Source: an uncultured SAR86 cluster bacterium | Lineage (GTDB): Bacteria > Pseudomonadota > Gammaproteobacteria > Magnimaribacterales > D2472 | Length of the DNA stretch: 64,000 nt | Direction of reading: 5' to 3' | Assembly: GCA_902601475.1 (NCBI GenBank) | Contig: CACKNK010000002.1 | Span: forward strand, 135,739-199,738 | In this document: piece by piece, positions 5,670 through 31,583 of the stretch | Layout: each line of letters opens with the position of its first letter | Position numbering within the stretch: position 1 is the first letter of the stretch | The notes under the pieces: generated by a model | Seen by the model: the letters and a program-made list of their open reading frames with translations, nothing else | What the model was told of the DNA's origin: nothing | Databases searched by the model: none | Program-made: the position numbers and the translations under genes

Positions 5670-5673
5670 GATC

Positions 5674-8072: not shown

Positions 8073-8083
8073 GCTTCTCAAGC

Positions 8084-11486: not shown

Positions 11487-11537
11487 CTTTTTAAAACTTT
11501 ATCTACGGAATTGTAAAAAGAGTAAAGCTATCCTCGA

Positions 11538-11954: not shown

Positions 11955-11969
11955 AAATATCTCCTATAC

Positions 11970-12965: not shown

Positions 12966-12997
12966 TATAAAAAATAGTTAATATACAATTATCTCAT

Positions 12998-13627: not shown

Positions 13628-14470
13628 CTATTTTATTTTTAAAGACGATTGACTAACAATGATATTGTACAAGTGATCTTGTGCTTCAGGTTTTAGTTGA
13701 GCCACCCCAACAGCTAACACATCGATAATTGCCATATAAGCGAGCCTTGAGGTAATCGGACTATTTAGTCTTGCGGAATTGCCAACATCAACCTCCAAAG
13801 AAATATCACATTCCCTAGAGAGCGGTGTCCCCGAGGGCATTAAGCCAATGACACGAGCGTTGAAACTCCTAACAGTTCTAACCGTATCTACCAATGCGCT
13901 GGTAGTTCCTGAATGGGATATTGCAACAACCACATCATCCTCATTTAACGAATTAGCTGACATGAATTGAATATGTGGATCGGATATACAAGAAGATGGA
14001 ATCTTCAGCCTAAAAAACTTATGTTGAGCATCCATGGCAACCGGGGCAGATCCCCCAAAAGCAAAAAATTCAATTCGTTTTGCATTTGCTAATGCCTCAA
14101 TAGCTTCCTCTAGGAGCTCTTGGTTTAATTGCGAGCGGATGTTTAAGATTTCACTTATGGTTGTATCGAAAACTTTCTCAGTTAGTACCTGAATAGAATC
14201 ATCCGGATCAATCTCATACGAGGTGAAGTATTCGTCTGCAGCAAGTTGCTGTGCAAGGGTTAGTTTAAATTCATTAAATCCTGAATAATTTAGCGCCTTA
14301 CAAAACCTATTTAAGGTTGGCTCACTAACACCTATTTTCTCAGCAGCTTGTGCCATAGTACTGGCAACCACATCAGCAGGATTCTCTAAAATAAAGTCAG
14401 CAACTAATTTTTCGGATTTTCTTAAATTGTCGTATGCGCCTTGGATTTCTCTGAGTAATTTAGTCTGCAT
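13628..14470 (-). CDS. MurR/RpiR family transcriptional regulator (HTH + SIS domain)
   Basis: HTH EKIGVSEPTLNRFCKALNYSGFNEFK. SIS motif VVVAISHSGTT. ATG at 14470 preferred. Confidence 0.8.
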   Translation of the reverse strand: MQTKLLREIQGAYDNLRKSEKLVADFILENPADVVASTMAQAAEKIGVSEPTLNRFCKALNYSGFNEFKLTLAQQLAADEYFTSYEIDPDDSIQVLTEKVFDTTISEILNIRSQLNQELLEEAIEALANAKRIEFFAFGGSAPVAMDAQHKFFRLKIPSSCISDPHIQFMSANSLNEDDVVVAISHSGTTSALVDTVRTVRSFNARVIGLMPSGTPLSRECDISLEVDVGNSARLNSPITSRLAYMAIIDVLAVGVAQLKPEAQDHLYNIIVSQSSLKIK

Positions 14471-14512
14471 GAAGGTAAAATAATCTATACATATCAATTG
14501 TAACCTCAAGAA

Positions 14513-16684: not shown

Positions 16685-17766
16685 TGAAAAAGTTTTGCGT
16701 ATCTTTTTTTGTTTTATTTTTAATTTCTTGTTCACAGGATTCTGTTCAGTCAGAAGTAGCTGTAAAGAAATTTAATTGGTCCATGGTAACCACGTGGCCA
16801 AAAAACTATCCTGGATTAGGGATGGCACCTGAGCGTTTTAGCAAAATGGTAAATGAGATGTCTCAAGGTCAACTGAAGATAACTGTTTATGGTGCCGGTG
16901 AATTTGTTCCCGCCATGGGAGTCTTCGATGCAGTTTCTTCGGGCTCAGTGGAAATGGGTCATGGCGGCGCTTATTACTGGAAAGGTAAGGTTCCTGCTGC
17001 ACAGTTCTTTGCAGGGGTTCCATTCGGATTCACAGCTGATGAAATTAATGCATGGGTTTATCGAGGCGGCGGTTTAGAGTTGTGGGAAGAAATTTATCAA
17101 CCCTTTAACATTAAACCCTTACCGGGTGGCAATACCGGCACCCAGATGTTTGGGTGGTTTAATAAGGAAATTAATTCACTTGCAGATCTGAAGGGTTTAA
17201 AAATGAGGTTTCCAGGTTTTGGAGGAGAGGTTTTTAAACGAGCAGGCGGCACACCGGTAAATATTCCTGGCGGCGAGCTGTATACAGCTATGCAAACGGG
17301 AACCATTGATGCAGTTGAGTGGGTGGGTCCATATAATGATCTCGCTTTTGGTTTTCAGCAAGTTGCAAAATATTATTATTATCCTGGTTGGCATGAGCCG
17401 GGGTCCATGCTTGAGTTTATGATCAACATTGATGAGTGGAATGGACTGCCTCCGCATTTACAAAAGATTGTTGAGGTTGCTGCCAAGGCAGTTAATCAAG
17501 ATCTTTTAGATGAATACACGGCTTCAAATAATCGAGCCTTACAGGAACTAATTAATACTCATGATGTTCAGTTAAGAAGATTACCCGATGATGTGATCAA
17601 TGAATTCAGAGCAATATCCGATGATATTTTGACATCCTCAGCAGAGAACGATGCAGATGTTAAAAAAGTTTATGAATCATTCAAAAAATTTATGGGAGAA
17701 GTTAGATCTTTTAATGCAATTGCCGAAGATGCATTTGTTGAAGCACGTAATTTGAGTGAAGAATAA
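16684..17766 (+). CDS. dctP: TRAP transporter substrate-binding protein (DctP family)
   Basis: Lipoprotein-like signal (LISCS). WPKNYPGLGMAPERF and GAYYWKGKVPAAQFF are typical of the COG4663-type TRAP SBP. TAATG overlap with the uvrD stop. Confidence 0.85.
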   Translation: MKKFCVSFFVLFLISCSQDSVQSEVAVKKFNWSMVTTWPKNYPGLGMAPERFSKMVNEMSQGQLKITVYGAGEFVPAMGVFDAVSSGSVEMGHGGAYYWKGKVPAAQFFAGVPFGFTADEINAWVYRGGGLELWEEIYQPFNIKPLPGGNTGTQMFGWFNKEINSLADLKGLKMRFPGFGGEVFKRAGGTPVNIPGGELYTAMQTGTIDAVEWVGPYNDLAFGFQQVAKYYYYPGWHEPGSMLEFMINIDEWNGLPPHLQKIVEVAAKAVNQDLLDEYTASNNRALQELINTHDVQLRRLPDDVINEFRAISDDILTSSAENDADVKKVYESFKKFMGEVRSFNAIAEDAFVEARNLSEE

Positions 17767-18358
17767 TTTGAAATTTTCTTATCTAGGAAAACAAGCTTAT
17801 CAAGACACATATAAGGATATGAAAGAACATATCCAAAATTTTTCCAGCAATCAGATCTGGATGCTGGAGCATGATGCAGTATTTACCTTGGGCACAGCAG
17901 CAGATGAATCTCACATTATTAATGCTGGTCAGATCCCCGTAATCCAAACCGATCGAGGTGGTGAGGTTACCTATCATGGACCAGGACAACTGGTAATTTA
18001 CTTTTTGATCGACATTAAAGAAATAAAACTTGGACCCAAGGCATTGGTTCAAAAGCTTCAAGAATTAATTTCAAGCATTCTGGGTCATTATGATATTGAA
18101 TCAAGTTTTATAGAGGGTGCACCTGGAGTCTATGTTGATGATAAAAAAATAGCCTCAATTGGGTTAAGGATTTCACAGGGGAAAACCTATCACGGCATTA
18201 GCATCAATGTGGACATGGACCTAACCCCTTTTTCATTTATTAATCCATGTGGGTATGAGGGCTTAGAGGTTACTCAAATAAAAAATTATGATTCAAATGT
18301 GAAAATGAAAGATGTAGAATCTATTGCCCAACAAGAAATAAGTAAAATTTTTGAGTAA
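17756..18358 (+). CDS. lipB: Octanoyltransferase LipB
   Basis: [18 protein letters not shown] and the catalytic region [17 protein letters not shown]...PCG. The exact start is uncertain (GTG at 17756). Confidence 0.9.
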
Positions 18359-19320
18359 TGGAAATCATACCAACAAAAAAAATCGTTAATCGAGATGGCA
18401 TCAAGGCTGTAAAAAATGGCCAAAAAGCCAATAAGTATTCTACGATTCCCAACCAAAAGAAACCGGATTGGATTCGGGTTAAAGCAACCTTTGATAAAAA
18501 CTTTAAGGCAGTTAAGGCACAAGTTGATGGCAAAAGACTTAATACAGTATGCGAGGAGGGTATGTGCCCAAATATGTCAGAGTGCTGGTCAGCAGGTACC
18601 GCAACATTTATGCTCATGGGTTCTGTTTGCACACGTGCCTGTAAGTTTTGTTCTGTAGATACGGGTAATCCAAAAGGATGGCTGGATCAGGATGAACCAC
18701 TCAATACTGCCAAAGCAGTTAAAACTATGGGACTTAAGTATGTTGTCCTAACCTCGGTCAATAGAGATGATTTAGAGGATGGGGGAGCAGAACATTACGC
18801 CAATACAGTCAAGGCCATTAAAGAACTTAATCCCAATACGGCGGTTGAGGCTTTAACACCTGACTTCAAAGGTTTGTCTTCATCAATTGAAACTTTGGTT
18901 AACTGCGGACTCGAAGTATTTGCTCAAAATGTTGAAACTGTGAAAAGACTCACTCACCCAGTTAGGGACATAAGAGCTGGATATCAACAAACTCTAGATG
19001 TGCTTGCAGAATCAAAAAGAATTAATCCCAAGGTGCTAACAAAAACCAGTTTAATACTTGGCTTGGGGGAAACCGATGCTGAGATCGAAGAGACCATGGA
19101 TGATTTAATTAAAAACAAGGTCGACATCCTAACTTTAGGTCAGTATCTAAGACCAACCCTTAATCATTTACCTGTTGAGCGATGGGTAACTCCAGAAGAG
19201 TTTGATAGATATAGAGACATCGGTCTCAAAAAAGGATTTCTTGAAGTGGTTTCTGGGCCCATGGTTAGATCAAGCTACAGAGCTGAAAGAGCTCTAGAGA
19301 AAAATAACGCTGGGCTCTGA
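18358..19320 (+). CDS. lipA: Lipoyl synthase LipA (radical SAM)
   Basis: [13 protein letters not shown] auxiliary cluster and [10 protein letters not shown] radical-SAM cluster. Confidence 0.95.
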
Positions 19321-19369
19321 ATGATAATTATCTTCTTAGATCTTTAACAAAGCAGAAAATTTAAATTCT

Positions 19370-20215
19370 TCAACCCTCACTCAACCAATCATTTACCAAG
19401 TAGGAGGGAAACCAACCATCTTCTCCTTTTTCATGAGCTTCATACCACCCAGAACCACCTTGAAAATCTAGATGAAAATCATGTCGCTCACCTTTATAGT
19501 CAACCGCTCTGATAGTATCTTCATCAAATGGCTTATCTCTATTTTGACCCAAAATACCATCGAATACATTGCAATAGTAGAGCCATGAAAGGTCATATTC
19601 TTCATTGGTGTCAGGATTATCGATAATCAATTTTAGGTCTCTAAGCTTAAAATCGTTAGCTACTTCAAAAGAGGTGTGAAGGGTTCCAGAGGAATAAGGT
19701 ATAACTTCAAATATGACAGTATGCCCCTCTGCAATAGCTTCCTTAGCCCCCAAATGCTGGAAGTCATCGTCACCAATTGGTTTCCAAACACAATCATCTG
19801 CATCAACATTATCTGGAGAACCATATGGAAAACCATAGTCTGTAATAGCCATTTCGATATAGTCAGAGTTTTCAAAATCTTCCATTTCAGTATATTCAAA
19901 CATACACGGGAAAAATGCCTTCTCCTCTCCATCAATACTGGCAGTATATTTGCAGCCTTCATTTCGAGCTGCGATACCATGTGAAATCAATGTAACCTTA
20001 GAATGCTCCTCCACAATCTCTATTGGCTCTCGATAAATTAAACCATTAGCCTCATTTTCTTTTATGCGTTTTTTTTCCTCTTCATCCAATTCAGGTATTC
20101 CAGTTTCCTTAAAAACATTATTAGCATTTTCTTTTAGTAGTTCCTTAGTTGCTGCATCGATTTCGTATGCATAAACTTGGACTCCTGGTGCTTCAATTTT
20201 TAGCTCTAATTTCAT
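19370..20215 (-). CDS. Hypothetical acidic protein (281 aa), last gene of the island operon
   Basis: Long ORF. ATG at 20215 preceded by GGGGA. Asp/Glu-rich. No recognised domain. Confidence 0.5.
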   Translation of the reverse strand: MKLELKIEAPGVQVYAYEIDAATKELLKENANNVFKETGIPELDEEEKKRIKENEANGLIYREPIEIVEEHSKVTLISHGIAARNEGCKYTASIDGEEKAFFPCMFEYTEMEDFENSDYIEMAITDYGFPYGSPDNVDADDCVWKPIGDDDFQHLGAKEAIAEGHTVIFEVIPYSSGTLHTSFEVANDFKLRDLKLIIDNPDTNEEYDLSWLYYCNVFDGILGQNRDKPFDEDTIRAVDYKGERHDFHLDFQGGSGWYEAHEKGEDGWFPSYLVNDWLSEG

Positions 20216-20304
20216 AATTTTTATTTTCCCCAACTTTTAAAATTTAATACTTATTACCTTAGCAGCGATAATATTAATAGGGAAATAAAAAGATTCTGAG
20301 GTGA

Positions 20305-20646
20305 CTATTTAAGATGGATATTGCTACCTTTAGCTGAAAAATCAGCCGCATCAAATTCTTTTTTTTCTATATCATCGCCATAAATTCCAAACATACTGTC
20401 TTGTCCAGGCAGGTAAACAAAAATATACAAACCTCCTCTATTGTGAGCAAAGAAATGATTTTCTCCCCATGCCAACTCATTGGTTTTATAAAGAAAAATT
20501 ATATTTTTTTCTGGATGGTTAATGGGATAAAGGCTGTGTTCATTTCCTAAATCTCCAGTCTTAACAAGTTTTTCTCCGTTAAGGACATTCAAAAAATAAA
20601 CAATGGTGTTTGGTTTTGCATAGTAAATATTGGTTTTTGATTTCAA
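20305..20646 (-). CDS. Hypothetical protein (113 aa)
   Basis: ORF co-oriented with the operon. Only a TTG start is available and there is no clear SD. No recognised domain. Confidence 0.4.
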   Translation of the reverse strand: MKSKTNIYYAKPNTIVYFLNVLNGEKLVKTGDLGNEHSLYPINHPEKNIIFLYKTNELAWGENHFFAHNRGGLYIFVYLPGQDSMFGIYGDDIEKKEFDAADFSAKGSNIHLK

Positions 20647-20668
20647 ATTTTTTAAATACCAAAAATAA

Positions 20669-20905
20669 TTAATGTGCTAAATTAAAAATCACTACAAATA
20701 AGACTCCTGTAGCAAGGACCCCCAGTACACAGATCAACCAATCCACAAAGAACACTTTAAACAGCTTAGCCCAAACACCATCATGAGCTTCATTCGCTGT
20801 GAGTTCTTTTTTGAAGACCTCCATTGCTGCATCTTTAAAAAATGAAAAGACACACAAGAAAGTTAGGCCTCCCAAAAGAAATATAAATGCATTCGTATTG
20901 ATCAT
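20669..20905 (-). CDS. Small 2-TM membrane protein (78 aa)
   Basis: Two hydrophobic helices (AFIFLLGGLTFLCVFSFF and WLICVLGVLATGVLFVVIF). Strong SD AAGGAGAAAACC-ATG. ATGA overlap with the upstream gene. Confidence 0.55.
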   Translation of the reverse strand: MINTNAFIFLLGGLTFLCVFSFFKDAAMEVFKKELTANEAHDGVWAKLFKVFFVDWLICVLGVLATGVLFVVIFNLAH

Positions 20906-21231
20906 GGTTTTCTCCTTAAATTTATTAAAGCTTTAATTATTCTTGAAAGTTCCGCATCAGCCCTTCGGAAATTTGTTTTAGTTAATGTTCTTGCTTGCCA
21001 GTAATCCTCATAACCATCTTCCATCCATTGTTTTCGAAATAATTGAAAGGTCCTTTGCAGGTACTTCTGCAATAATCGGATATCTGCAATTGCGTTAAAA
21101 TTATTCTTTTTTAGCCACGATTCAACTTCAAAAGAATCACTCTGAGCAACTTTTTTTACAAACATTTCTAGAATAGTAGATAACTCAGTATTGATGTTTT
21201 TTAGATCTTTTATTGATTTTGAATCTTTCAT
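20902..21231 (-). CDS. Hypothetical helical protein (109 aa)
   Basis: ORF 7 nt downstream of the HAD gene and translationally coupled to the 2-TM gene. No recognised domain. Confidence 0.5.
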   Translation of the reverse strand: MKDSKSIKDLKNINTELSTILEMFVKKVAQSDSFEVESWLKKNNFNAIADIRLLQKYLQRTFQLFRKQWMEDGYEDYWQARTLTKTNFRRADAELSRIIKALINLRRKP

Positions 21232-21238
21232 GATTAAT

Positions 21239-21820
21239 TTAAAAATTTGTTCTCTTAATCATAGTATCATCAACATGTTTTGGAATAATCCTTATTTTGG
21301 GGAATACCTTTTTGAGCTGAATAAAGCTTTGAATATTATCCATAGAGTCGTCGAACAGATAAGCTGCTTGGTATTGATGAGATTTTAAATATTTACTGAT
21401 AATTAATTTTTTTGCTTCAGCAGTTTTTAGCTTAGCTAAGTTTCCTGCCCTTTCAACATAGATATGATTGATGTCTAATCCTGAGGAGTTTAGGTATTCA
21501 AGAAAAATATCTTTACAATCAAAATCGGATCTTGCTGTTAATAAAATTGTTTTGGAACCATGGGCAGCTTCTTTTATGCAATCCTGCGCCTTTTTAATAA
21601 TTGGATTGATTGGCTGTGACTCATTTACAAATTTTTTTGAGTCCTTGAACTCTGCAAAACAAATGGTTTCATCATCTTTTAACTTAAAGTCCTTTAATTC
21701 TTGCGAGTTTAAATATATTACTTTACCCTCGCTATTTTTTACTTTTGCTCTTGCGGTAGTTCGGAAAAGGGTGTCATCTATATCAAAAACATAGAGAGAT
21801 TTAATATGCCTTCTAGTCAT
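21239..21820 (-). CDS. HAD-superfamily phosphatase (small, capless type)
   Basis: Motif I VFDIDDTLF (DxDxT). Motif II ILLTARS. Motif III/IV K...YLFDDSMDN. Confidence 0.7.
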   Translation of the reverse strand: MTRRHIKSLYVFDIDDTLFRTTARAKVKNSEGKVIYLNSQELKDFKLKDDETICFAEFKDSKKFVNESQPINPIIKKAQDCIKEAAHGSKTILLTARSDFDCKDIFLEYLNSSGLDINHIYVERAGNLAKLKTAEAKKLIISKYLKSHQYQAAYLFDDSMDNIQSFIQLKKVFPKIRIIPKHVDDTMIKRTNF

Positions 21821-22304
21821 AGCTTTCAGAGCTCCAAATCATGTTAAGTTTATTTTTATCAAGCTCCCAAACTTCAACTTTTATGTTTGATGAAAATTCA
21901 AGCGTCAACCCATCTTCGGATAGATGATCTTTCTTATTCCACTGAATTAACATGGCTTTACAAGTATTTTCTTTGGATAAATGTTTGGCTCTAGATTTAA
22001 GATAAATCTTTAGTTGACTCAAGTACTCAATTTTATTTTCTAATGCTGCTTGTTTTGTCTCAATAATAAGGTCTTCTTTTATGCCAAAGTTTTTTTGTTG
22101 AGGTATATAAAAATCAGCAACAATATACCCAACCGGATGCTTTTTATATAACACATCAAGTGAAAGCTCTTTCTCGTAGGCAACTCTAGAATTTATGAAT
22201 TCAACTGCTAATGCAGCTTGCAAAACATTTTCTTTAAATCCTGCACCTAGCTCTCTTTGAATTCGTTTAGAGAGTTTGGTGACGTGTTTATAAAATTCTT
22301 TCAT
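21813..22304 (-). CDS. GxxExxY-family PD-(D/E)xK nuclease-fold protein
   Basis: ELGAGFKENVLQAALAVEF (GxxExxY-like, Y replaced by L), ADFYIP...LIIETKQ (D...E-x-K), YLSQLKIYL. Strong SD AAGGAGGA upstream. Confidence 0.6.
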   Translation of the reverse strand: MKEFYKHVTKLSKRIQRELGAGFKENVLQAALAVEFINSRVAYEKELSLDVLYKKHPVGYIVADFYIPQQKNFGIKEDLIIETKQAALENKIEYLSQLKIYLKSRAKHLSKENTCKAMLIQWNKKDHLSEDGLTLEFSSNIKVEVWELDKNKLNMIWSSESYD

Positions 22305-22339
22305 AGCAAATCCTCCTTAACTGTCTTGTTAATAATTTT

Positions 22340-23752
22340 TTATCCATAAGCATTTACCTCGATTTTATTTTTTATAAATTGCTCAACCCCCTGAATGATT
22401 TTTAGATCTGATGGTGAGGATCTATCTTCTATTAATTCCTCGGCTTCTTTTAAACATGCTGAGCTTGAAGGCCAAGGACCCTCAGATGTCCATCGTTCTC
22501 TAATTAACTCTTGATAATAAGAGGTGAGTTCAGTTGGAAGATCAGATTCATTTTTTTGGGATAAGATTCGGTAGCCAAACTCTTTTGCTCTAGGATCATT
22601 GAATTTTTTGCAAATAAATAACTGCTCTTCCAAGCTCTTTGAATTATGAAATTGTTCAAATAGTTTCTTATCTTCATAGTCGAAGAATTTTTCATAGATT
22701 GTCTCTTCAATAAGGTTTTTCTTTGGCCATTTTCTTTGTTCGGTTTCTGTAGATGCAACAAGAACTTTTTCAATCCAATCTTCATTCCTAGAGTAATTTT
22801 CGGCATTTGAATTCAGCTCTTTCATTGAGCAATCAAAATTGAAGTCAAATTCATTTGCGTCAGCCAAGCCGCTTGATCTATTCAGTCGAATAATTTTGAA
22901 GGGTGATTCAGTAAAAGGTTTTTCTAAAAACTTTGTGATCTCTTCATAACTAAGATTTAAAACTTCATCAACTGGATAGTTAAGGTCCACACATATGGCT
23001 TCATTTTGATTAGTTGGATTGATACCAACGAATTTAATGGGGTATGTCCAAAATCTAGCAAACGGCTGATATCGATAGCCAATTACTTTTGTGTTTTTTA
23101 AAAATTCAGCACAACCTTGTTTTGTTCCCTGGCTCAGAAAGTCTGTTACTAACTTTTCTGCTGATAAATGAAAAAAATTAAGTAACTCGATCATAAAAAT
23201 ACAATCTGATAATGCATCATGTGCATTAGTAGTATCGATGCCGATTCGTTCAGCTACCGAGGATAATGAACATACTGGATGCCCATTTGCATTTATTTCG
23301 AAGTCAATCATCTTTGGGAAGAGCTGACTAACCAATCTGGTTAGCATGAGTAAATCAGATCGGCCATTGCCGTTTGTATTTGTGATGAATGGATCCATTA
23401 AATTCCAAAAGAATTGACGCCTGTATAACTCTTCATCAAAGTTATGACCGTTATAAGTAATAAAAAGGGCAGGGCCATCATTGCTCCAATTTTTCCACTG
23501 ACCATGAATGGTTTTCATCATTTGATAATGTGTTTCTGAGCTAGATAAGGTTTCTATTTTCTTATGAGTTAAATATGCCCCAGGTGAAGGAACCACCCAG
23601 GGTAAGGGAGCACAAGAAACATTCATTGAATCTTGAATGTTGTAATTTTGATCTGTCACCACCGAAGCTGACTGTATTATTTGAATAAAATCTTTTGGAT
23701 CTTTTCCGGTGGTTTCAGTGTCACTAAAGATAAGCTTATTTTGAAATTTCAT
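22340..23752 (-). CDS. sbcB: Exodeoxyribonuclease I-like DEDDh 3'-5' exonuclease (SbcB homologue, divergent)
   Basis: Collinear with my recollection of E. coli ExoI. FSDTETTG (Exo I motif), YNGHNFDEELYRRQFFWNLMDPF (Exo II), GRSDLLMLTRL, NAHDALSDCIFMIEL (Exo III H-x4-D). C-terminal SH3-like/helical region PFKIIRLNRS. 470 aa. Confidence 0.8.
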   Translation of the reverse strand: MKFQNKLIFSDTETTGKDPKDFIQIIQSASVVTDQNYNIQDSMNVSCAPLPWVVPSPGAYLTHKKIETLSSSETHYQMMKTIHGQWKNWSNDGPALFITYNGHNFDEELYRRQFFWNLMDPFITNTNGNGRSDLLMLTRLVSQLFPKMIDFEINANGHPVCSLSSVAERIGIDTTNAHDALSDCIFMIELLNFFHLSAEKLVTDFLSQGTKQGCAEFLKNTKVIGYRYQPFARFWTYPIKFVGINPTNQNEAICVDLNYPVDEVLNLSYEEITKFLEKPFTESPFKIIRLNRSSGLADANEFDFNFDCSMKELNSNAENYSRNEDWIEKVLVASTETEQRKWPKKNLIEETIYEKFFDYEDKKLFEQFHNSKSLEEQLFICKKFNDPRAKEFGYRILSQKNESDLPTELTSYYQELIRERWTSEGPWPSSSACLKEAEELIEDRSSPSDLKIIQGVEQFIKNKIEVNAYG

Positions 23753-24359
23753 TTAATTTTCCTTTTTTATATGAATAGGTTGTTACTTTTTGATCAGCCT
23801 GATCGGTGAAACGCAAGACATCTCCATCCCTTTTGTCTTCGTGCCAATAAGTTAATGAATTTAATCTGCCATCAGGATAGAAGTAAGTTGCTTTGCCATG
23901 TTTTTTTCCAGCTAAGAAGTTGTACTCTCTCCATTTATGGAAATTACTGAGAAAATGAATGAACCTGCCATGCAATAAACCATTGTTAAAATCGGCACTA
24001 ATTTCAATTGATCCATCCTCATGATATGTTTCATAAGTGCCGGTGAACTCAACAACGATGCATTTATTTATAGGTGTTTCATTTGATGGCTCACGAAGAA
24101 TTTCTTTATTATCAATGAGCTTTAAATCCATATATCTACAGAACTTTCCATTTAAATAAAACAAATCCAGCTTGGAATTTTCTCTCAGGACAAATCCAAG
24201 ATTACGATGATCGAATTCTTTATCCCATTCACATTCCAATTCAAATCGAATATCTTCATAATTAGCGTCTTCATCAATCAAATCCTTTTTCTTTTCCAAA
24301 GCTTTTTCACGATCGATGAGCTTTTGTTTGTATTCTTTGAGGTAGATAACTTTTTGCAT
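23736..24359 (-). CDS. MORN-repeat (YwqK-like) protein, first gene of the operon
   Basis: Repeats of the G-x-x-H/K-G...Y...G type: NGLLHGRFIHF, AGKKHGKATYFYPDGRL, EDKRDGDVLRF. Overlaps the ExoI start by 17 nt. Confidence 0.6.
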   Translation of the reverse strand: MQKVIYLKEYKQKLIDREKALEKKKDLIDEDANYEDIRFELECEWDKEFDHRNLGFVLRENSKLDLFYLNGKFCRYMDLKLIDNKEILREPSNETPINKCIVVEFTGTYETYHEDGSIEISADFNNGLLHGRFIHFLSNFHKWREYNFLAGKKHGKATYFYPDGRLNSLTYWHEDKRDGDVLRFTDQADQKVTTYSYKKGKLNEISK

Positions 24360-24383
24360 ATAGATTTATTATGCTTTACCTAT

Positions 24384-24400
24384 ACGACATATAATGTCGT
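24384..24400. promoter_or_regulatory. Operator candidate 1: palindrome ACGACATATAATGTCGT
   Basis: Perfect 7-bp arms around ATA. Lies 24 nt upstream of the MORN-operon start codon (24359, minus strand). Contains a TATAAT hexamer. Confidence 0.6.
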
Positions 24401-24450
24401 CTTTAAAAACATATTCTTAATTTTTGTATTAAAGATAGTAAATTATTGTA

Positions 24451-24467
24451 ACGACATATAATGTCGT
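24451..24467. promoter_or_regulatory. Operator candidate 2: identical palindrome ACGACATATAATGTCGT
   Basis: Identical 17-mer, 67 bp centre-to-centre from copy 1. Ends 13 nt before the WYL-regulator ATG. Followed by TATATGA. Confidence 0.6.
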
Positions 24468-24480
24468 ATATGATCTTGCT

Positions 24481-25482
24481 ATGAATAATGATACATCCTT
24501 ACGTTATTTAGAAATGCTTCAATACTTGCCTGTATATCCTGCTAAAAGATCTTTATCTGAGATTCGATCTCATTTATCGGAGTACGGACATTCGGTGAGC
24601 GATAGAACAATTCAGCGAGACCTTAGAAAGCTTGAAGGATCGTTTGGATTATATTGTGATGATCGGAGTATTCCTCATGGTTGGTGCTGGATGAAGGATG
24701 CAAAAAGGGTAGACATTGCTGCAATGGATCATGCAGAAGCGCTTACCTTGAGTCTTGCTAAAAAATATCTCTCTAGTGTACTGCCTCTTCAGCACTCCTC
24801 TAGAATAACTGGCCTGTTTAAGAGAGCCGAAGCTTTTTTGAATCAAACCCAAAGCTCTGACCTAATAAAATGGAATGATAAAGTAAGAGTAGTGCCTGCT
24901 AGCCATGAATACATAGGCCCAAAAATAAAAGGGGATATTCAACAAGTCATTTATGAAGCAGTCCTTAGAGAAAAAAAATTCAGTGGTAGCTATCAGTCTA
25001 GAGAATCACAAAAACCCAAAAAAGGAATTTATAATCCGTTGGCTATAATTTCACATGGTGTTGTAACGCGAGTCATCTGCACTAGAGAATTAAAAGGAGA
25101 GGCTGATAACTTAATTAGGTATTTACCCCTTCACAGATTTAAATCTGCAAGCCCCTTAGAGGATTCGATCAATATACCAAAAGAATTTGACCTTGATGAA
25201 TATCTTGATAAAGGCGAACTGAATTACTTATACGATAAAGAAATCGATTTGCATTTGGAGTTTTCTCAGAGTGCAGGCTCGCATTTAATTGAGACGCCTT
25301 TTTCTAAAAATCAATCTATAAAAATCATAAAAAATGGATTTATTATTCTTAAAGCAAAGACTCCTTATACAGAAACACTTAAGAGGTGGATTCTTGGTTT
25401 TGGTGACCAAGTAAGAGTATTAGGTCCTTCAAACCTTAAAAAAGAAATTCAAGAAATACATAAAAGATCCATCAAGAAATAG
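24481..25482 (+). CDS. HTH-WYL-WCX transcriptional regulator (BrxR/CapW/PafBC-like)
   Basis: N-terminal wHTH LSEIRSHLSEYGHSVSDRTIQRDLRKLE. Central WYL-type SH3 barrel FSGSY...YNPLAIISHGVVTRVICT...IRYLPLHRFKS. C-terminal WCX LKRWILGFGDQVRVLGPSNLKKEI. Confidence 0.8.
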   Translation: MNNDTSLRYLEMLQYLPVYPAKRSLSEIRSHLSEYGHSVSDRTIQRDLRKLEGSFGLYCDDRSIPHGWCWMKDAKRVDIAAMDHAEALTLSLAKKYLSSVLPLQHSSRITGLFKRAEAFLNQTQSSDLIKWNDKVRVVPASHEYIGPKIKGDIQQVIYEAVLREKKFSGSYQSRESQKPKKGIYNPLAIISHGVVTRVICTRELKGEADNLIRYLPLHRFKSASPLEDSINIPKEFDLDEYLDKGELNYLYDKEIDLHLEFSQSAGSHLIETPFSKNQSIKIIKNGFIILKAKTPYTETLKRWILGFGDQVRVLGPSNLKKEIQEIHKRSIKK

Positions 25483-25506
25483 TATTGATTTTAAGATAAG
25501 AATTGT

Positions 25507-26787
25507 TCAATTTAAGATATCTGTAATATTTAAATCCCTATTCTCATTACCTAAAATTTTTATTTCCAACGGAGAGAATACTTTGCTGGTTTTAGGATGA
25601 TCAAGAAGATATTTATAAGCAAGGGAAAATTCAAAATTTTCAAATTTTTCATATTTTTTTTCCTTCCCTTCTTTTTTGGCTTCTCTAGCAAGTCTTTTTT
25701 CAACTAGGTTTTTTCGCTTTAGACCAAGAAGCTTTCTTGAGTTATCATTTTCTCGAAGCTCCAAACTCATCCTAATTGATGTTATATCTCTTAATGATGC
25801 CAGCACCTTTAATGATATTGGTTCTTTAAATTCTTTCTCTTTTTCGGGCTCCTTGGGATCGTAACTATCTAATCTCGTAAAGTTCTCTAATTTGTCTATC
25901 AGTCTATTAATTCCTCCTAATACGCATTCTTCATAAAGCTTAAATTCAGTAGAGCTTGTTAACCAATAGCTCTGGGCAGACTCTGCTTTTTCACCAGGTT
26001 TATATAATGTTTTTCTAAATCTTGATGCAAGCAAATTCATCCCAAATATTGTTGCTTTAATAGGATTTTCAAAAGCATATTGTTCTTGCTCGTTTTTTGA
26101 ATTCCTATTTCCATAAGGGTTAATTCCATTCAATAATAATAGAGCCCTAATTAATATTGTTCTTTCAACCAGTGCTTGAGGCGTATCATAAATACCATGT
26201 TTGTAGATAAAATTATGATTAAATATCTCTTGCTCTCTATCCTGAAAACTTTTGGTAGTATCTGGTTTTGTATCACTTATGATTTTTTCCACAAACGATC
26301 TAAGATCAGTGTCGTTAATTTTTTTTAATAACAAAGAATCTGGTATTTCTCTTTCATAACTCATCTTTAACAAATCTGAAATTTCCATATCTTCTTTAAA
26401 TGCATTTTCTGCTGATTCTTTTGCATTTTTAAGATCCCAAGTTTTTTTATATAGACTGTTTTCATATTCTTGTTGTCGACATGATGCATATATTGTCCAG
26501 ATATCCTCTAACCATGTGCGAGGCTCATCAAATCGTATTTTTATTTGAGTGCCAACCATGTAATAACAAATATCATTCATTAATTTTTCTTTAACTTGAG
26601 CAAATTTACTGTGCTGCATCTTATTTTTTTCATCAAATAAGTCAGGATTTTCTCTTTTATGTCTAATATTTTTACCCAGGAAATACTCATCAATAATTTT
26701 CTCTATGCCTGCAAATTTACCATTAAGGGTTCTTATTTGACTTCTACAGAATTGAAGAACTGAATTTTTGCTATCATATTTCGCCAT
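25507..26787 (-). CDS. Hypothetical protein (426 aa), no recognised domain, Lys/Glu-rich C-terminal segment
   Basis: Uninterrupted 426-codon ORF with an ATG start, convergent with the WYL gene. Predicted mostly helical. KE-rich stretch LAREAKKEGKEKKYEKFE. Confidence 0.6.
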   Translation of the reverse strand: MAKYDSKNSVLQFCRSQIRTLNGKFAGIEKIIDEYFLGKNIRHKRENPDLFDEKNKMQHSKFAQVKEKLMNDICYYMVGTQIKIRFDEPRTWLEDIWTIYASCRQQEYENSLYKKTWDLKNAKESAENAFKEDMEISDLLKMSYEREIPDSLLLKKINDTDLRSFVEKIISDTKPDTTKSFQDREQEIFNHNFIYKHGIYDTPQALVERTILIRALLLLNGINPYGNRNSKNEQEQYAFENPIKATIFGMNLLASRFRKTLYKPGEKAESAQSYWLTSSTEFKLYEECVLGGINRLIDKLENFTRLDSYDPKEPEKEKEFKEPISLKVLASLRDITSIRMSLELRENDNSRKLLGLKRKNLVEKRLAREAKKEGKEKKYEKFENFEFSLAYKYLLDHPKTSKVFSPLEIKILGNENRDLNITDILN

Positions 26788-26847
26788 TTAATTATTTTAC
26801 ATTAAAATTAATAATTACAAAAAGTTAAAATTATTTATAATTTCTTG

Positions 26848-26876
26848 TTGACATTATTACTAGCAGAGTCTAAATT
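26848..26876 (+). promoter_or_regulatory. Sigma70-type promoter candidate for the acidic-protein genes
   Basis: TTGACA (26848-26853), 17-nt spacer, TAAATT (26871-26876), about 47 nt upstream of the ATG at 26924. Confidence 0.45.
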
Positions 26877-26923
26877 ATTGCCCTCCAATTTTGGAAAATA
26901 TAAAAAATTTTAAAGGAAATAAT

Positions 26924-27205
26924 ATGGCTACAATTAAATATATGCAACTCGAAAAACATCAGGTCTCAGTCAGGAAGGGTATGATCGCTACTACTGAAGA
27001 TTGGGACGGTAACGAGGTAGTATCAGAAGAGGATCTAAGAACTTTTCTAGAAGAAGGCACTACAGGCAATGATGAAACAGACGATATATGCTTAGAACAA
27101 GTCCAAGATTCAGAATGTGTGACTGACAGAGACGAGGATTGGATTAGTGACAGGAAGGGTTATACGGAGGTGGAGTATTACTCAATAGGTCAAGAATTTG
27201 AATAA
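26924..27205 (+). CDS. Small highly acidic protein (93 aa)
   Basis: ATG at 26924 with SD AAAGGAA. Runs of D/E (EEDLRTFLEEGTTGNDETDDICLEQVQDSECVTDRDEDW). Confidence 0.55.
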   Translation: MATIKYMQLEKHQVSVRKGMIATTEDWDGNEVVSEEDLRTFLEEGTTGNDETDDICLEQVQDSECVTDRDEDWISDRKGYTEVEYYSIGQEFE

Positions 27206-27220
27206 ATAAAAACTAACTTT

Positions 27221-27245
27221 TCAAGCTGAACTAAGTTCAGCTTGA
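27221..27245. repeat. Perfect 25-nt inverted repeat (11-bp stem, 3-nt loop)
   Basis: TCAAGCTGAAC-TAA-GTTCAGCTTGA, 15 nt after the stop of the 93-aa gene. No U-tract follows. Confidence 0.6.
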
Positions 27246-27266
27246 GCTAACAACACAGACAAAAAT

Positions 27267-27695
27267 ATGAATTTAAACAAAGACTATGATTGGGCCAGGG
27301 TTATTGGTAAAAGAGATAGTTTACTAATGCAATCAATGGAAGACGATATGAGCCAGGTAATCTTAGATTATCTAGGGGTTGAAAGTGAGGAGGATGTTTC
27401 AAAAGAACATGTCGAGGAACTTTTGGAGATTAGAAAATTTCTAGAAACACCTTTTAGCGAAGGTGGTAAGGGGTTTACCTTAAGTAGTTCACCACATTTT
27501 GAGGTTTTGTATAACTCAATCCAGATGTTGGCAGATGAGATCTTAGAAGAGGCCGAAGGAGTTTCACAAGAAGGAAAAATTGTTAACATTAACAAACAGC
27601 CTAATCAGCCACCTGAAATTAATCTTGATGATGAGTCAATGTGGGATGAGTTAATAGATGAAATGATAGAGGAAGATAAAGATAAGAAGAATTAA
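27267..27695 (+). CDS. Small acidic protein (142 aa)
   Basis: ATG start. D/E-rich throughout, with C-terminal DDESMWDELIDEMIEEDKDKKN. Confidence 0.55.
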   Translation: MNLNKDYDWARVIGKRDSLLMQSMEDDMSQVILDYLGVESEEDVSKEHVEELLEIRKFLETPFSEGGKGFTLSSSPHFEVLYNSIQMLADEILEEAEGVSQEGKIVNINKQPNQPPEINLDDESMWDELIDEMIEEDKDKKN

Positions 27696-27779
27696 TATAA
27701 AAGACACCAAAAAAAGAGTCATATCAACTTAACCTATGACTTAGAAGAAATTTAAAACCATAATAAAAAGGAGAACATT

Positions 27780-27842
27780 ATGAGATTAATTTTAGGAATA
27801 GCACAAGAAGAGCTTTTTAGTAGTTGTTTTAACAATGTGTAG
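27780..27842 (+). CDS. 20-codon mini-ORF (MRLILGIAQEELFSSCFNNV) with strong SD, upstream of the GIY-YIG gene
   Basis: AAGGAG 6 nt before the ATG. Stop lies 33 nt before the 27876 ATG. Too short for the ORF track. Confidence 0.3.
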   Translation: MRLILGIAQEELFSSCFNNV

Positions 27843-27875
27843 AATTAAATTTTTTAATAAAAGGGATGAAATTAT

Positions 27876-28793
27876 ATGAGTTGGAGTGAGTTTAGACCTT
27901 TTACTGATTATATTGATATCAAACATTTCACTGGTTACTCTGGTGGTGGAAAAAATATTTGGAAAACCAAATTACAAGAAGAAGCTAATAAAGAACCAGA
28001 TCTTTTGAGCTTTTCTCAAGCAGAAGGGTGCACACCAGTCAAAGGGGGTGTTCTCGATTATAGAAAAGATAATAGCTCTGGGGAATGCCCTGAAATTACA
28101 TGTGGAATTTACTTTATTCGTATTGATGATGAGAGCGCTAAACATAACGAAGAAACTCCATCTGGATATTATGATTACATTGGTTTGTCATCTAATTTCA
28201 CTAAAAAAACTTTTCAATCCGGCATCTATGGAAGACTATATGATCATTACAGGAAATTAGTATGCCTCCCTAAAAGAGGTAATTTTGGCGAGTTAATTAT
28301 AAGAAATCATTTTAAAGATATTAACTTAAGTAATTTGAATAAAGGCCAGAAAAAGGCTCTACTCAAAAAACATCAACTTAAAGCTATAGAACATCTCCAG
28401 AAGCAATCTTTTGAAGATTACCAAAAACTAAGAGACTATTTTGGGGGAGACGATATAGGTAATAATCTAGATTTATACGGCACTACTGAATACTTCTTTA
28501 AAGCTTTTAAAGCATGCAGTGAAACAAATGATCTGAATACAATTAATGGAATTAAACATTTTTTCAAAGAAAAAGTACATCTTTCATTTTATAAACATAC
28601 ATTTGGTGGTGAAGATCAGTTTCGTTCAAAAGGTAATAACCCGCAAATAAATGAGTCGTGGAAGAAGTTCGTCGAATTTATTGCAAAAGGAGAAGGGGTA
28701 GCTTTAGCAGCTTATAAAAATATAAATGGAAAGTTACCATATTTAAATAAGAGAGATGAGATAAAAAACCTTGATATTCTGCCCAACCACTGA
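27876..28793 (+). CDS. GIY-YIG-like nuclease-domain protein with a large internal insertion
   Basis: CGIYFIRI...YYDYIGLSS...SGIYGRLYDHYRKL (GIY, YIG, Arg-x3-His). A distal E/N region EFIAKGEGVALAAYKNINGKLPYLN lies about 170 aa later. Between them is a K-rich helical insert. Confidence 0.5.
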   Translation: MSWSEFRPFTDYIDIKHFTGYSGGGKNIWKTKLQEEANKEPDLLSFSQAEGCTPVKGGVLDYRKDNSSGECPEITCGIYFIRIDDESAKHNEETPSGYYDYIGLSSNFTKKTFQSGIYGRLYDHYRKLVCLPKRGNFGELIIRNHFKDINLSNLNKGQKKALLKKHQLKAIEHLQKQSFEDYQKLRDYFGGDDIGNNLDLYGTTEYFFKAFKACSETNDLNTINGIKHFFKEKVHLSFYKHTFGGEDQFRSKGNNPQINESWKKFVEFIAKGEGVALAAYKNINGKLPYLNKRDEIKNLDILPNH

Positions 28794-28940
28794 CGTCATT
28801 TTAACAGTAACATCACCAGTTAAACTTTACGAAAAGAATTTAATCAACCACCTCACATCGAAGAAAATTAATAAGGATAATTTTTCAGACTTGCTAGGTA
28901 GATCAAGAGTTAATTTAATCAAAGATTAATTTTCTCTATA

Positions 28941-28957
28941 ACGACAATATGTGTCGT
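28941..28957. promoter_or_regulatory. Operator candidate 3: ACGACAATATGTGTCGT
   Basis: Same 6-bp arms ACGACA/TGTCGT with a 5-nt spacer. Ends 23 nt before the ATG at 28981. Followed by GTATATGA, similar to copy 2. Confidence 0.55.
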
Positions 28958-28980
28958 GTATATGAGTTCTAATAGAACAT

Positions 28981-29487
28981 ATGAAAAAAAATACTGATAA
29001 CTGGTTAAATGTACGGGCAAACTCGAGCATATCATTTAATAATATAACCATCCATAATTCAAAGTATGTGAAAGTTAGCTCGATTAAGGTAACAATTTCA
29101 CTTCATTACTCTGATGATGATGGTACTTGCGTTTTTTTAACTAAAAATCCTCAACTTATTCATATGATGATTGATCGATGTGAAATTGAAAGAAACTTGC
29201 CTTATGGGGAGTGGGAAAAAACCGTTAGATCAATTCTTTTTAAAGAAAAAGGAATAAAAAATAGCGACCTTGATCAGTTTGTTAGTTGGAACCTAGCAAA
29301 CCCATCATTCTCACTGGCAAAGTATAGAAAATGCACAAAAAAAGAAATTGATGCTTTCAGATTTCATCGTGCTGATCAAAGAAGCGAAATTTTGTCTGGT
29401 AATGATAAGGTGGTTTATCAGCAATACATTAAAGCATCCTATAACGACCAAGACAGTTCAGTACCTCACAACTTTGTTATGCCATAG
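28981..29487 (+). CDS. Hypothetical protein (168 aa)
   Basis: ATG ORF directly downstream of operator copy 3. No recognised domain. Confidence 0.55.
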   Translation: MKKNTDNWLNVRANSSISFNNITIHNSKYVKVSSIKVTISLHYSDDDGTCVFLTKNPQLIHMMIDRCEIERNLPYGEWEKTVRSILFKEKGIKNSDLDQFVSWNLANPSFSLAKYRKCTKKEIDAFRFHRADQRSEILSGNDKVVYQQYIKASYNDQDSSVPHNFVMP

Positions 29488-29548
29488 GATTACAATAAGG
29501 TTAATAATATTTTATAAATTATTTTGAGTTAAAAAATGGAGAAAACCA

Positions 29549-29809
29549 ATGAGTGATTTGATTAGAGTGAAAAGAACAAGAACTGTAGTAACGACCTACC
29601 GGGATTTTGCCGATATAGATCGAGAGCAGATGATTAATGATTTAGGAATAACGGTACATGATTATGATGATTTTATGAATGAACTAGAAGATTGGATACT
29701 GAAATGGGAGATGCTTGATAAACCAACAGAGATCGAAGTAGATCAAAGTGAAACAGTTTCAGAGGAGGAGGAACTAGATTGTTGGATAGATGCTGATTGC
29801 ATCGATTAA
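29549..29809 (+). CDS. Small highly acidic protein (86 aa)
   Basis: SD GGAG 8 nt before the ATG. C-terminal EVDQSETVSEEEELDCWIDADCID. Confidence 0.55.
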   Translation: MSDLIRVKRTRTVVTTYRDFADIDREQMINDLGITVHDYDDFMNELEDWILKWEMLDKPTEIEVDQSETVSEEEELDCWIDADCID

Positions 29810-29811
29810 AT

Positions 29812-31140
29812 TTATAAAATTACAAATGGAAAAACTATAACAAATAGCAAAACCAATATTTGGATGATGATAAAAGGAATAACTCCTCTATAAATATCTG
29901 TAGTTTTAATGCTCGCGTCAGCAACCCCTCTCAAGTAAAACAAAGAAAATCCAAAGGGCGGTGTAAGGAAGGATGTCTGTAAGTTGATGGCCATTAATAT
30001 TCCAAGCCAGACAGGATCAAAGCCCATCATTAATAAAGGCGGAGCCACTAGTGGAATAATGACATAACAGATTTCAATGAAATCCAAAATAAAGCCAAAA
30101 AGAAAGATGGCAAAAAGGATAAAGAATAGGGCAGTGTATTTCCCACCTGGCATCATCTCAAAAATTTGATCAACTAAGAGATCACCACCCACTCCTCTAA
30201 AAATTAGTGAAAAAATTGAAGCTCCAATAAGGATGCTAAATATCATGGTGGTAACGGTTGCTGCCTTATAACTGGTTGCTTTAATAAGCTCTAAGTTAGC
30301 ATTGCCATTAATGGCAGCAATAATGAGTGCTCCAAGAGCACCCACTCCAGCAGCTTCAGTAGGCGTTGCTATACCTCCAATAATTGATCCGAGCACAACA
30401 AAAATTAGAGTGGCTGGGGGCAGTAGGGTTTTGAGAATGTTGGCTTCACCTTTAGTTTCTTCAATGACAACAAACTCTTTTTTCCTATTTATTAATATTG
30501 TGTAGATCAAATAGCCAATTACTATCATTAGGCCAGGGACAACCGCTCCAACAAATAAATCACCCACAGAGACCGTTTCCTGAGAGAACACTCCAAGATT
30601 ATTTTGCGCTCTTTGATAGGCATTCGACATCACATCACCGAGCAGTACCAACGCAATTGAGGGCGGAATAATTTGTCCCAATGTTCCTGTTGAAGCAACC
30701 AAGCCGGAGGCAAAGTCCTTGTCATAACCTTGTTTCAACATCGCTGGTAAAGACATTAGTCCCATGGTTACAACGGTAGCACCCACAATTCCAGTGCTGG
30801 CTGCTAAAAGTGCCCCCACAACAATTATTGAAATACTCAATCCCGAATTAGTATTTTTAAAAACGATTGCCATATCTCTTAGCATTTTGGAGGCAATGCC
30901 TGACCTCTCTAAAACCACTCCCATAAACACAAACAAAGGAACAGCCAAAAGCGTTTGATTATTCATGATCCCAAAAAGTCGCATGGGCAAAGTCTTAAAT
31001 AAATTAGCATCAAAGAAACCAAAAACGGTTCCTAGAAGAGCAAATAATATAGAGGTGCCCGCCAAGGTAAATGCAACTGGATACCCGACTAGCAGCGCCA
31101 TGCAAATTAGAGCAATTAAGAGAATGGGGATTATTTCCAT
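29812..31140 (-). CDS. dctM: TRAP transporter large permease (DctM family)
   Basis: About 12 TM helices. N-terminus MEIIPILLIALICMALLVGYPVAFTLAG and the LFVFMG/GIATPTEAAGVGA regions are typical of DctM. Confidence 0.9.
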   Translation of the reverse strand: MEIIPILLIALICMALLVGYPVAFTLAGTSILFALLGTVFGFFDANLFKTLPMRLFGIMNNQTLLAVPLFVFMGVVLERSGIASKMLRDMAIVFKNTNSGLSISIIVVGALLAASTGIVGATVVTMGLMSLPAMLKQGYDKDFASGLVASTGTLGQIIPPSIALVLLGDVMSNAYQRAQNNLGVFSQETVSVGDLFVGAVVPGLMIVIGYLIYTILINRKKEFVVIEETKGEANILKTLLPPATLIFVVLGSIIGGIATPTEAAGVGALGALIIAAINGNANLELIKATSYKAATVTTMIFSILIGASIFSLIFRGVGGDLLVDQIFEMMPGGKYTALFFILFAIFLFGFILDFIEICYVIIPLVAPPLLMMGFDPVWLGILMAINLQTSFLTPPFGFSLFYLRGVADASIKTTDIYRGVIPFIIIQILVLLFVIVFPFVIL

Positions 31141-31583
31141 AATTTATAAAGCTCCTTTAATCCGGCAAATGCTAAAACTATTGGAAATAAGAAAATTAAA
31201 CTTTTTTGAAAATAAACAAACTCCAAACCTCCTGGCTCAGTCGAAATTTCTTTTACCGACCAAGAAGTTGATACAAAATCAATTGAGTAATAAGCAAGCA
31301 CTCCTATGGTTGGAAAAAGAAAAAATATTATTCCTAAGGTATTAACTAATTTTTTGTATTGTGGCTTTGAGTTGCGATACAAAATATCTACTCTGACGTG
31401 TTCATCCTCAAGATAAGCCCATCCAGCACACCCAAGGAAAATTAAAGCATGCAAGTAGAGCGTTAATTCCTGCAAGTCTGTCCTGCCGACCCCAAAAAAA
31501 TACCTGCTCACTACAACAGCAATCATTAGCACTAAAAGTAGCGGAAGAAAAAGAGCAAAAAACTTTCCAATCCTGTTATTCAT
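31131..31583 (-). CDS. dctQ: TRAP transporter small permease (DctQ family)
   Basis: Four TM helices. HVRVDILY motif. Overlaps the dctM start by 10 nt. Confidence 0.75.
   Translation of the reverse strand: MNNRIGKFFALFLPLLLVLMIAVVVSRYFFGVGRTDLQELTLYLHALIFLGCAGWAYLEDEHVRVDILYRNSKPQYKKLVNTLGIIFFLFPTIGVLAYYSIDFVSTSWSVKEISTEPGGLEFVYFQKSLIFLFPIVLAFAGLKELYKLWK

Follow-up and report, generated by a model that had tools for sequence, protein, structure and literature searches.

An additional exonuclease I gene beside a DriD-like WYL regulator in a strain-variable island of a SAR86 bacterium

Few uncultured bacterial groups are as abundant in the surface ocean as SAR86, a group with heavily streamlined genomes. 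The 64,000-nt stretch considered here (the window) is part of contig CACKNK010000002.1 of an uncultured SAR86 cluster bacterium (assembly GCA_902601475.1, G000 below; 22 contigs totaling 1.35 Mb, with 81% completeness), and it includes an accessory island with an eight-gene operon whose second gene, at 22340-23752, encodes a divergent exonuclease I (ExoI; SbcB/XonA in E. coli). A gene for a DriD-like regulator of the WYL type is divergent from the operon, and three copies of a predicted regulator-binding box are present, two in the interval between regulator and operon and one further along the island (Table 1). Other genomes and loci are referred to by G and L numbers.

Table 1. Features of the accessory island, with positions in the window
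Feature	Position	Strand	Remarks
Whole accessory island	19314..29856		10.5 kb, between the 3′ ends of lipA (18358-19320) and dctM (29812-31140)
Accessory exonuclease I (SbcB/XonA-like)	22340..23752	-	470 aa; DEDDh residues intact
MORN_2-repeat protein, first gene of the operon	23736..24359	-	207 aa; 3′ end overlaps ExoI start by 17 nt
PD-(D/E)xK nuclease, PDDEXK_3 / GxxExxY family	21813..22304	-	163 aa; 35 nt after ExoI
Small HAD phosphatase	21239..21820	-	193 aa; DIDDT motif I; start overlaps PDDEXK_3 gene by 8 nt
Four more co-directional operon genes	19370..21231	-	109, 78 (two hydrophobic helices), 113 and 287 aa
wHTH-WYL-WCX regulator, DriD-like	24481..25482	+	333 aa; divergent from the operon
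Predicted box 1, ACGACATATAATGTCGT	24384..24400		Operon-strand order: box, 10 nt, CATAAT (24373-24368), 8 nt, MORN ATG
Predicted box 2, same sequence as box 1	24451..24467		13 nt upstream of regulator ATG, inside a TTGTAA-17-TATGAT promoter-like spacer
Predicted box 3, ACGACAATATGTGTCGT	28941..28957		Followed by 10 nt, TCTAAT, 7 nt, ATG of 168-aa gene
Variable box-less module	25507..28793		426, 104, 142 and 305 aa, between regulator and 168-aa gene
168-aa and 86-aa genes behind box 3	28981..29809	+

Accessory and core exonuclease I

From the sequence of the window the original prediction had described the 470-aa protein as collinear with E. coli ExoI and as retaining the DEDDh residues, and both points are borne out. 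Residues 4-463 align with positions 6-473 of the 477 in the NCBIfam exodeoxyribonuclease I profile NF008746; the Pfam RNase_T match, a DEDD exonuclease domain, covers residues 9-190 and that to Exonuc_X-T_C (PF08411) residues 237-461 (E 3.8e-17), and the top PDB matches are the ExoI structures 1fxx, 4jrp and 4rg8 (E ~1e-17). On alignment with E. coli ExoI the catalytic residues pair as D11/E13 with D15/E17, D106 with D108 and H178/D183 with H181/D186, and the five are unchanged across 32 SAR86 homologs representing all three ExoI clades described below. The gene, with a dN/dS of 0.08-0.18, is under purifying selection. Most likely it encodes an intact, predicted 3′-5′ exonuclease I acting on single-stranded DNA (ssDNA).

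Identity to the product of E. coli sbcB is only ~23-24%, and the 140.6 bits scored on NF008746 fall short of the curated equivalog cut-off of that profile, 260 bits. The low identity noted in the original prediction is therefore real, but it is not a peculiarity of the island copy. The core copy of the same genome, described next, scores 146.4 bits on the same model, core copies of the lineage score 146-171 bits, all below 260, and ExoI of other Gammaproteobacteria is only 22-31% identical. With both copies of the assembly below the NCBI cut-off and such distance from the other Gammaproteobacteria, low identity is an order-wide trait, and with the island protein a divergent ExoI subfamily that extends over the whole of SAR86 gains a new member. 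The position of E. coli R148, a residue which we take to be part of the pocket that binds the C-terminal tail of SSB, is occupied by Phe (F145) in the island protein and likewise by Phe in the core copy, and the rest of the pocket is poorly aligned; since both copies have the replacement, loss of SSB binding was dropped as a trait that would set the island copy apart.

A second, canonical sbcB in the genome had been suggested as something to look for. A second ExoI gene is present, at C1:64912-66279, and its product is 35% identical to the island ExoI; its context, acyl-CoA dehydrogenase followed by ExoI, is syntenic in genera g1, g2 and g6, but by the NCBI threshold it does not count as canonical. 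Thus the window gene is not the only sbcB of its genome, nor is it in a conserved core context, as four other genomes of the genus lack the island. Two copies are rare in the order: 37 of 40 same-order relatives have a single intact ExoI and only G001 and G006 have two. In that survey no ExoI was seen in the partial genome G004, and both of the matches in G040 were fragments. Two copies are likewise present in G103, a species identified later.

In a maximum-likelihood tree of 63 ExoI sequences all those from the SAR86 order form one clade that is remote from other Gammaproteobacteria. Within it the core copies of family f1, that of G000 included, form a clade of their own (support 100/100). 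An accessory clade (100/97) unites the island copies with a metagenomic group of 66-69% identity and a further group of 49-54% (P0015, P0016 and P0017), and its sister is the ‘g8-type’ ExoI of SAR86 (jointly 100/99). The window copy, which it had been proposed to place in a phylogeny, is accordingly outside the core clade of its own family and in a separate one. On the strength of this placement it is a xenologue from another SAR86 lineage and not a recent duplicate. The alignment positions that are fixed differently between the clades number only 10.

The island, its operon and its exchange

When the DNA was compared with that of six other genomes of the genus, window positions 19314-29856 proved to be missing from four of them, G007, G003, G008 and G005. 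Without the island the lipA and dctM flanks are 76 bp apart in G007 and 290 bp apart in G008; at L025 and L091 the lipA|dctM site holds the same island. No tRNA is present in the island, and scans with Pfam and PHROGs recognized no integrase or transposase family among its proteins. Compared with the window, the island proteins of G103 are 81-94% identical and the flanking core proteins 56-83%, whereas at L025 it is the flanks that are the more similar, at 68-93% identity, against 55-77% for the island. As island and flanks have diverged out of step with each other, the island has passed between species, presumably through recombination within the conserved flanking regions. A phage origin, raised by a match to phrog_19080, was rejected for want of relatives in IMG/VR, and matches of ExoI to GenBank phages are to fragments of E. 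coli sbcB at Stx-prophage junctions. The genes of the TRAP transporter at this site are split, with dctP (window 16684-17766) upstream of lipB-lipA, and dctM-dctQ (29812-31583) past the island and on the other strand; as the split is also there in G007 and G008, where the island is not, it predates the island.

The eight co-directional genes of the operon are uninterrupted, with no terminator-like site on the minus strand between 19370 and 24359. The immediate neighbors of the ExoI gene are those given in the original prediction, an overlapping MORN-repeat gene upstream and a PD-(D/E)xK gene close behind, and the AAGGA ribosome-binding site 8 nt before the ExoI ATG is within the 3′ end of the MORN gene. 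The MORN protein matches Pfam MORN_2 and MORN, both under the cut-off. Its homologs are only 23 in 5.8 billion proteins, all of them island orthologs, and one carries the JGI name YwqK-like. In the PDDEXK_3 protein D64, E82 and K84 are invariant in an alignment of 25 sequences and the AlphaFold2 model has a pLDDT of 92; a fold search for its subtype gave only weak generic matches (cap-snatching endonuclease, Cas4, HincII, Hjc and RecU). The HAD protein, with motifs DIDDT, TARS and DD, matches the polynucleotide kinase family phrog_415 (7e-7) and, weakly, Pfam HAD_SAK_1. Foldseek with its AlphaFold2 model (pLDDT 88) did not narrow the substrate, the top matches being split between the HAD domain of Lem4, a protein phosphatase, the phosphatase of T4 polynucleotide kinase (PNK) and the nucleotidase AphA, all with E ~2e-3. 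By their motifs both partner proteins look catalytically competent. The remaining four genes of the operon are kept at L024, L025, L029 and L091.

In versions of the operon elsewhere ExoI (or MORN) is separated from PDDEXK_3 by a gene for 81-88 aa (L024 9406-9672, L025 9406-9672, L074 3551-3811 and L107 9413-9658), for which there is no room in the short gap of the window, where it is missing. L024 (GCA_028340075.1) has five extra genes at 10836-15929, encoding 234, 433, 165, 444 and 244 aa with no Pfam match, between the HAD gene and genes for 167, 103 and 78 aa. Homologs of the HAD protein, ~43% identical, are encoded at L108 6001-6624 and L110 6001-6561, the latter on a 177-kb freshwater contig; both contigs have packed, small unidirectional ORFs and resemble regions of large-phage genomes.

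On the other side of the regulator, the 168-aa protein behind box 3 is 62-77% identical over all versions of the island, and the module between it and the regulator varies, being absent from G001 and partly replaced at L025. The proteins of this module have no match in Pfam, PHROGs, NCBIfam or PADLOC; an earlier idea that the 305-aa protein is of the GIY-YIG type found no confirmation in any of these libraries. In all, 11 window proteins and the 10 extra proteins of L024 drew nothing from the four.

The regulator, its boxes and their history

The regulator, with a winged helix-turn-helix (wHTH) and Pfam WYL and WCX matches, is closest to DriD. With a profile of its family against the PDB the five DriD entries are the best matches (2e-12 to 1e-11), followed at a distance by PafC (3e-4) and by 7qfz (0.28), an entry which we take to be BrxR. 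The recognition helix of the regulator has R-T-I-Q-R to set against the base-reading R37-x-x-E40-R41 of DriD, the residues being equated by pattern. No genome of the genus has the regulator without also having the accessory ExoI. G000 encodes LexA, as do 20 of the 21 genomes of the order that were searched, 18 of them above the family cut-off, so the WYL circuit is additional to SOS; a proposal that it replaces a missing SOS was rejected for this reason.

G000 also has, besides lexA (C1:204292-204897), a short gene for a LexA-like/UmuD-like peptidase (C1:177979-178308; 156-aa open frame), and most genomes of the order that were searched have such an additional gene. Distant WYL paralogs of the order are at L085 (G025) 8347-14764, L086 (G031) 8404-11730, L087 (G019) 3103-7472 and L088 (G030) 4345-7597, where they flank a 1696-aa protein combining DUF4011, an SF1 helicase and an MTES_1575 restriction endonuclease, a 1108-aa RNase_H_2-SF1 helicase, or MoxR(AAA_5)-DUF2201/VWA modules. 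L087 has three boxes of its own, of GCGAC-N7-GTCG type.

The 1.35-Mb assembly has exactly three copies of the 17-bp sequence ACGACA-N5-TGTCGT, against an expected 0.47, and all three are intergenic and in the island. No box with one mismatch is present in the assembly, and the eight matches with two mismatches, mostly inside ORFs, were counted as noise and not as further members of the regulon. The sequence matches both the published DriD site, ATACGAC(N7)GTCGTAT (PMC13004042), and that of DdaA, CGWCA-N5-TGWCG (PMC12392091). Predicted boxes are conserved at L024, L025, L029, L073, L074, L091, L092, L093 and L101, box 3 in particular at L024, L025, L029 and L091. At the level of sequence, an arrangement of box, exactly 10 nt and a -10-like hexamer (CATAAT, TATAAT, TATTAT, GATAAT, TAAAAT or TCTAAT) recurs in at least 12 promoters at nine loci, with the start codon 6-9 nt past the hexamer, and so nearly leaderless, or otherwise with a leader that has a Shine-Dalgarno sequence. 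In DriD promoters the site replaces the -35 element, and in the bidirectional driD promoter the box that adjoins the regulator ATG activates the divergent operon (PMC13004042). The placing of the island boxes 10 nt before the -10 hexamer likewise indicates what is predicted to be activator geometry. L024 has a further box (CCGACAATCTTTGTCGC) before its 167-aa gene.

Association of regulator, box and ExoI extends to arrangements other than that of the window. The full module, which comprises the regulator and MORN-ExoI-(86-88 aa)-PDDEXK_3-HAD, persists down to ~51-54% ExoI identity. A minimal pair of regulator and ExoI with a single box is present at L073, L092 and L093, and in G101 this pair is beside rpoD-dnaG and its ExoI is the only one. 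The components are in trans in G100: a degenerate box accompanies its regulator and the adjoining MORN-81 aa-PDDEXK_3, and the only perfect box is on another contig, in front of the only ExoI. The first of these G100 loci, from single amplified genome AG-917-I09 (L107, G100:C3:84000-100500, 7844-10493), reads WYL regulator plus MORN-81 aa-PDDEXK_3-110 aa, with no ExoI; at the second (L101 6234-8377) the perfect ACGAC-N7-GTCGT box precedes, with the same geometry, an operon of a 237-aa membrane protein and ExoI. There is no box in g8-type genomes that lack the regulator, and none in the regulator-less G007 and G102.

As the boxed ExoI is the sole ExoI of G100 and G101, the link to the regulator is older than capture of the gene into the operon. 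On the simplest history there was initially a WYL regulon of MORN-PD-(D/E)xK and the ExoI of the cell; ExoI was then captured between the MORN and PD-(D/E)xK genes in an ancestor of the island, and finally the cassette reached genus g1, where the native core ExoI was retained. The original prediction had an ExoI recruited into an accessory operon under a damage- or phage-responsive regulator. A regulator of DriD/DdaA type by sequence, boxes before the operon and the capture itself all agree with this, with the correction that the link to the regulator came before the recruitment.

Possible roles and relation to known systems

The island is perhaps best regarded, with somewhat more confidence than doubt, as an ssDNA- or damage-inducible cassette for DNA end-processing, equipped with a xenologous ExoI from a lineage in which this gene is the target of a DriD-type WYL activator. 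The regulator would bind ssDNA arising from damage, stalled replication or incoming DNA, occupy the ACGAC-N7-GTCGT box in place of a -35 element and, as an activator rather than a repressor, recruit RNA polymerase to the almost leaderless operon, with co-production of the MORN protein, ExoI, the PD-(D/E)xK nuclease and the HAD phosphatase. Nuclease and phosphatase may open and clean DNA ends for which ExoI digests the 3′ single strands, and ExoI, by removing the inducing ssDNA, would also reset the circuit in a negative feedback. The unit exchanged among SAR86 species at lipA|dctM would then be the regulator, its boxes and the eight-gene operon, operating beside an unregulated core ExoI. End-processing is favored because activators of damage responses are of this regulator type and have this promoter geometry, because DriD already controls recJ, an ssDNA exonuclease gene, because the boxed gene is the sole ExoI in G100 and G101, and because no recognized defense system is present in the island.

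Several points weigh against it. The contacts that DriD makes with ssDNA are partly kept, with Y168 and R204 retained, R176 and R178 replaced by Lys, and R189, Y192 and R207 not kept, so the ligand could differ from that of DriD. Box 2, inside the promoter spacer of the regulator gene, looks like a site of repression, and the regulator may thus have dual action. The fold searches have not narrowed the roles of the MORN, PD-(D/E)xK and HAD proteins. Lastly, an island that is strain-variable, horizontally exchanged and rich in genes of no known family fits defense islands as well as it does repair cassettes.

The last of these points counts for an anti-phage or anti-mobile-element role, which is less likely but still carries appreciable weight. 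A WYL protein sensing ssDNA or another cue of infection would induce ExoI, the PD-(D/E)xK nuclease and perhaps the protein with two hydrophobic helices against foreign DNA, or against the DNA of the cell itself in abortive infection, and the MORN protein would be inhibitor or adaptor. The WYL paralogs beside the giant DUF4011-helicase-restriction endonuclease gene, the RNase_H_2-SF1 helicase and the MoxR-VWA modules point the same way, as do the distant HAD homologs on phage-like contigs and the naming, by one source, of the MORN protein as YwqK antitoxin-like. DdaA-type regulators control CRISPR-Cas and restriction-modification too (PMC12392091), and in DRT10 it is ExoI that gates defense, setting its threshold through degradation of cDNA (bioRxiv 10.64898/2026.04.29.721553). 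No defense system of PADLOC-DB 2.0 is recognized in the island, however, only generic matches (DEDDh, WYL and a marginal HamA, E 0.0025). The full-length match of the island ExoI to the PADLOC model RTasSbcB (184.7 bits) is exceeded by that of the core copy (202.7 bits), and g8-type housekeeping copies also score higher; with PADLOC and Pfam finding no reverse transcriptase or SLATT among the island proteins, and no noncoding RNA by Rfam match, RTasSbcB as a link to DRT systems, and to DRT10/UG17 in particular, was rejected. The boxed ExoI of G100 and G101, being the only one there, is of the housekeeping kind rather than an effector dedicated to defense. Moreover, DriD, an activator, is a closer relative of the regulator than is 7qfz, presumed to be the defense repressor BrxR, box geometry is of the activator type, and the lipA|dctM site, which is either empty or filled with the same island, is not a general defense hotspot.

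That ExoI is merely a redundant passenger, carried along by chance and adding nothing to core ExoI, is highly improbable. The two copies do share their catalytic residues, lack R148 alike, and so few positions are fixed differently between the clades; yet purifying selection acts on the island copy, every version of the island has kept ExoI, with identities from 98% down to ~51-54%, and the minimal pair retains it beside the regulator, its own box is conserved even where it is unlinked from the regulator, and it is translationally coupled to the MORN gene. Least probable of all is a role in DNA catabolism and phosphorus salvage, with incoming ssDNA inducing nucleases that convert it to deoxynucleoside monophosphates (dNMPs), from which the HAD protein, as a nucleotidase, would free phosphate and nucleosides. 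ExoI releases 5′-dNMPs, the HAD model resembles the class B nucleotidase AphA about as much as the T4 PNK phosphatase, and the host is a streamlined marine oligotroph. Against this, the island has no transporter, competence or nucleoside-catabolic gene, the minimal module is of regulator and ExoI only, and regulators of this type are tied to damage responses in every case studied. A more speculative proposal, to which we give a little less credence than to defense as set out above, is a mobile, self-contained ‘ssDNA alarm’, in which a DriD-type sensor would induce a PD-(D/E)xK protein with a BapE-like suicide or defense function, held in check by MORN, and ExoI would finish the degradation and erase the signal. 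If so, trigger, effector and reset would be in one cassette that can be swapped among SAR86 species, which is of a kind not yet described.

A strain-variable cassette with a second, separately regulated ExoI means that responses to DNA damage or foreign DNA belong to the flexible gene pool of SAR86. It extends the WYL activators of DriD/DdaA type, hitherto studied as chromosomal master regulators, to a portable single-locus circuit, and identifies ExoI as a recurrent target of circuits of this type. Its small local regulon, three boxes, one regulator and one operon, provides a compact test bed for the working of a WYL activator, for feedback of ExoI on the ssDNA signal, and for the roles of the widespread GxxExxY PD-(D/E)xK proteins and their MORN partners.

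With E. coli ExoI (1FXX, 4JRP) the island protein has in common the three-part layout, in which the DEDDh domain is joined to the ExoI-specific C-terminal region, and the five catalytic residues. It differs in its low identity, in a score below the equivalog threshold and in having Phe for R148, and also in its setting, second in an eight-gene operon behind a box for a WYL regulator and alongside a core ExoI. The WYL repressors CapW and BrxR, of CBASS and BREX respectively, share with the island regulator its domain architecture and their divergence from the system controlled, but the match to 7qfz, again on the assumption that it is BrxR, is of E 0.28 against 1e-12 for DriD, and the box position with respect to the -10 hexamer indicates activation of the operon. 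CapW also senses ssDNA (PMC11662680).

DdaA, of Acinetobacter and other Moraxellaceae, is like the island regulator a WYL activator of Gammaproteobacteria, and the island boxes match its site exactly. It is a chromosomal master regulator that replaces SOS and controls recA, ssb and uvrA in addition to the defense systems already mentioned (PMC12392091), unlike the island regulator, whose three sites are all local and whose host has LexA as well. DriD of Caulobacter crescentus senses ssDNA, and its regulon includes didA, bapE, recJ, dnaG and the CCNA_03891 operon, with recJ, the ssDNA exonuclease gene, among those it activates (PMC13004042). The island circuit has the same wHTH-WYL-WCX layout, the same CGAC-N7-GTCG core in its boxes, a box standing in the -35 position with constant spacing to the -10 hexamer, a box beside the regulator start codon facing the divergent operon, and an ssDNA exonuclease gene among the targets. 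In contrast to the DriD regulon it is contained whole on a mobile 10.5-kb island, with boxes nowhere else, its exonuclease is the 3′-5′ ExoI instead of the 5′-3′ RecJ, the ssDNA-contacting residues are kept only in part, and its host has LexA. The kind of circuit is therefore known from DriD and DdaA; what is new is its portability, a regulon that is fully local and ExoI as its conserved target.

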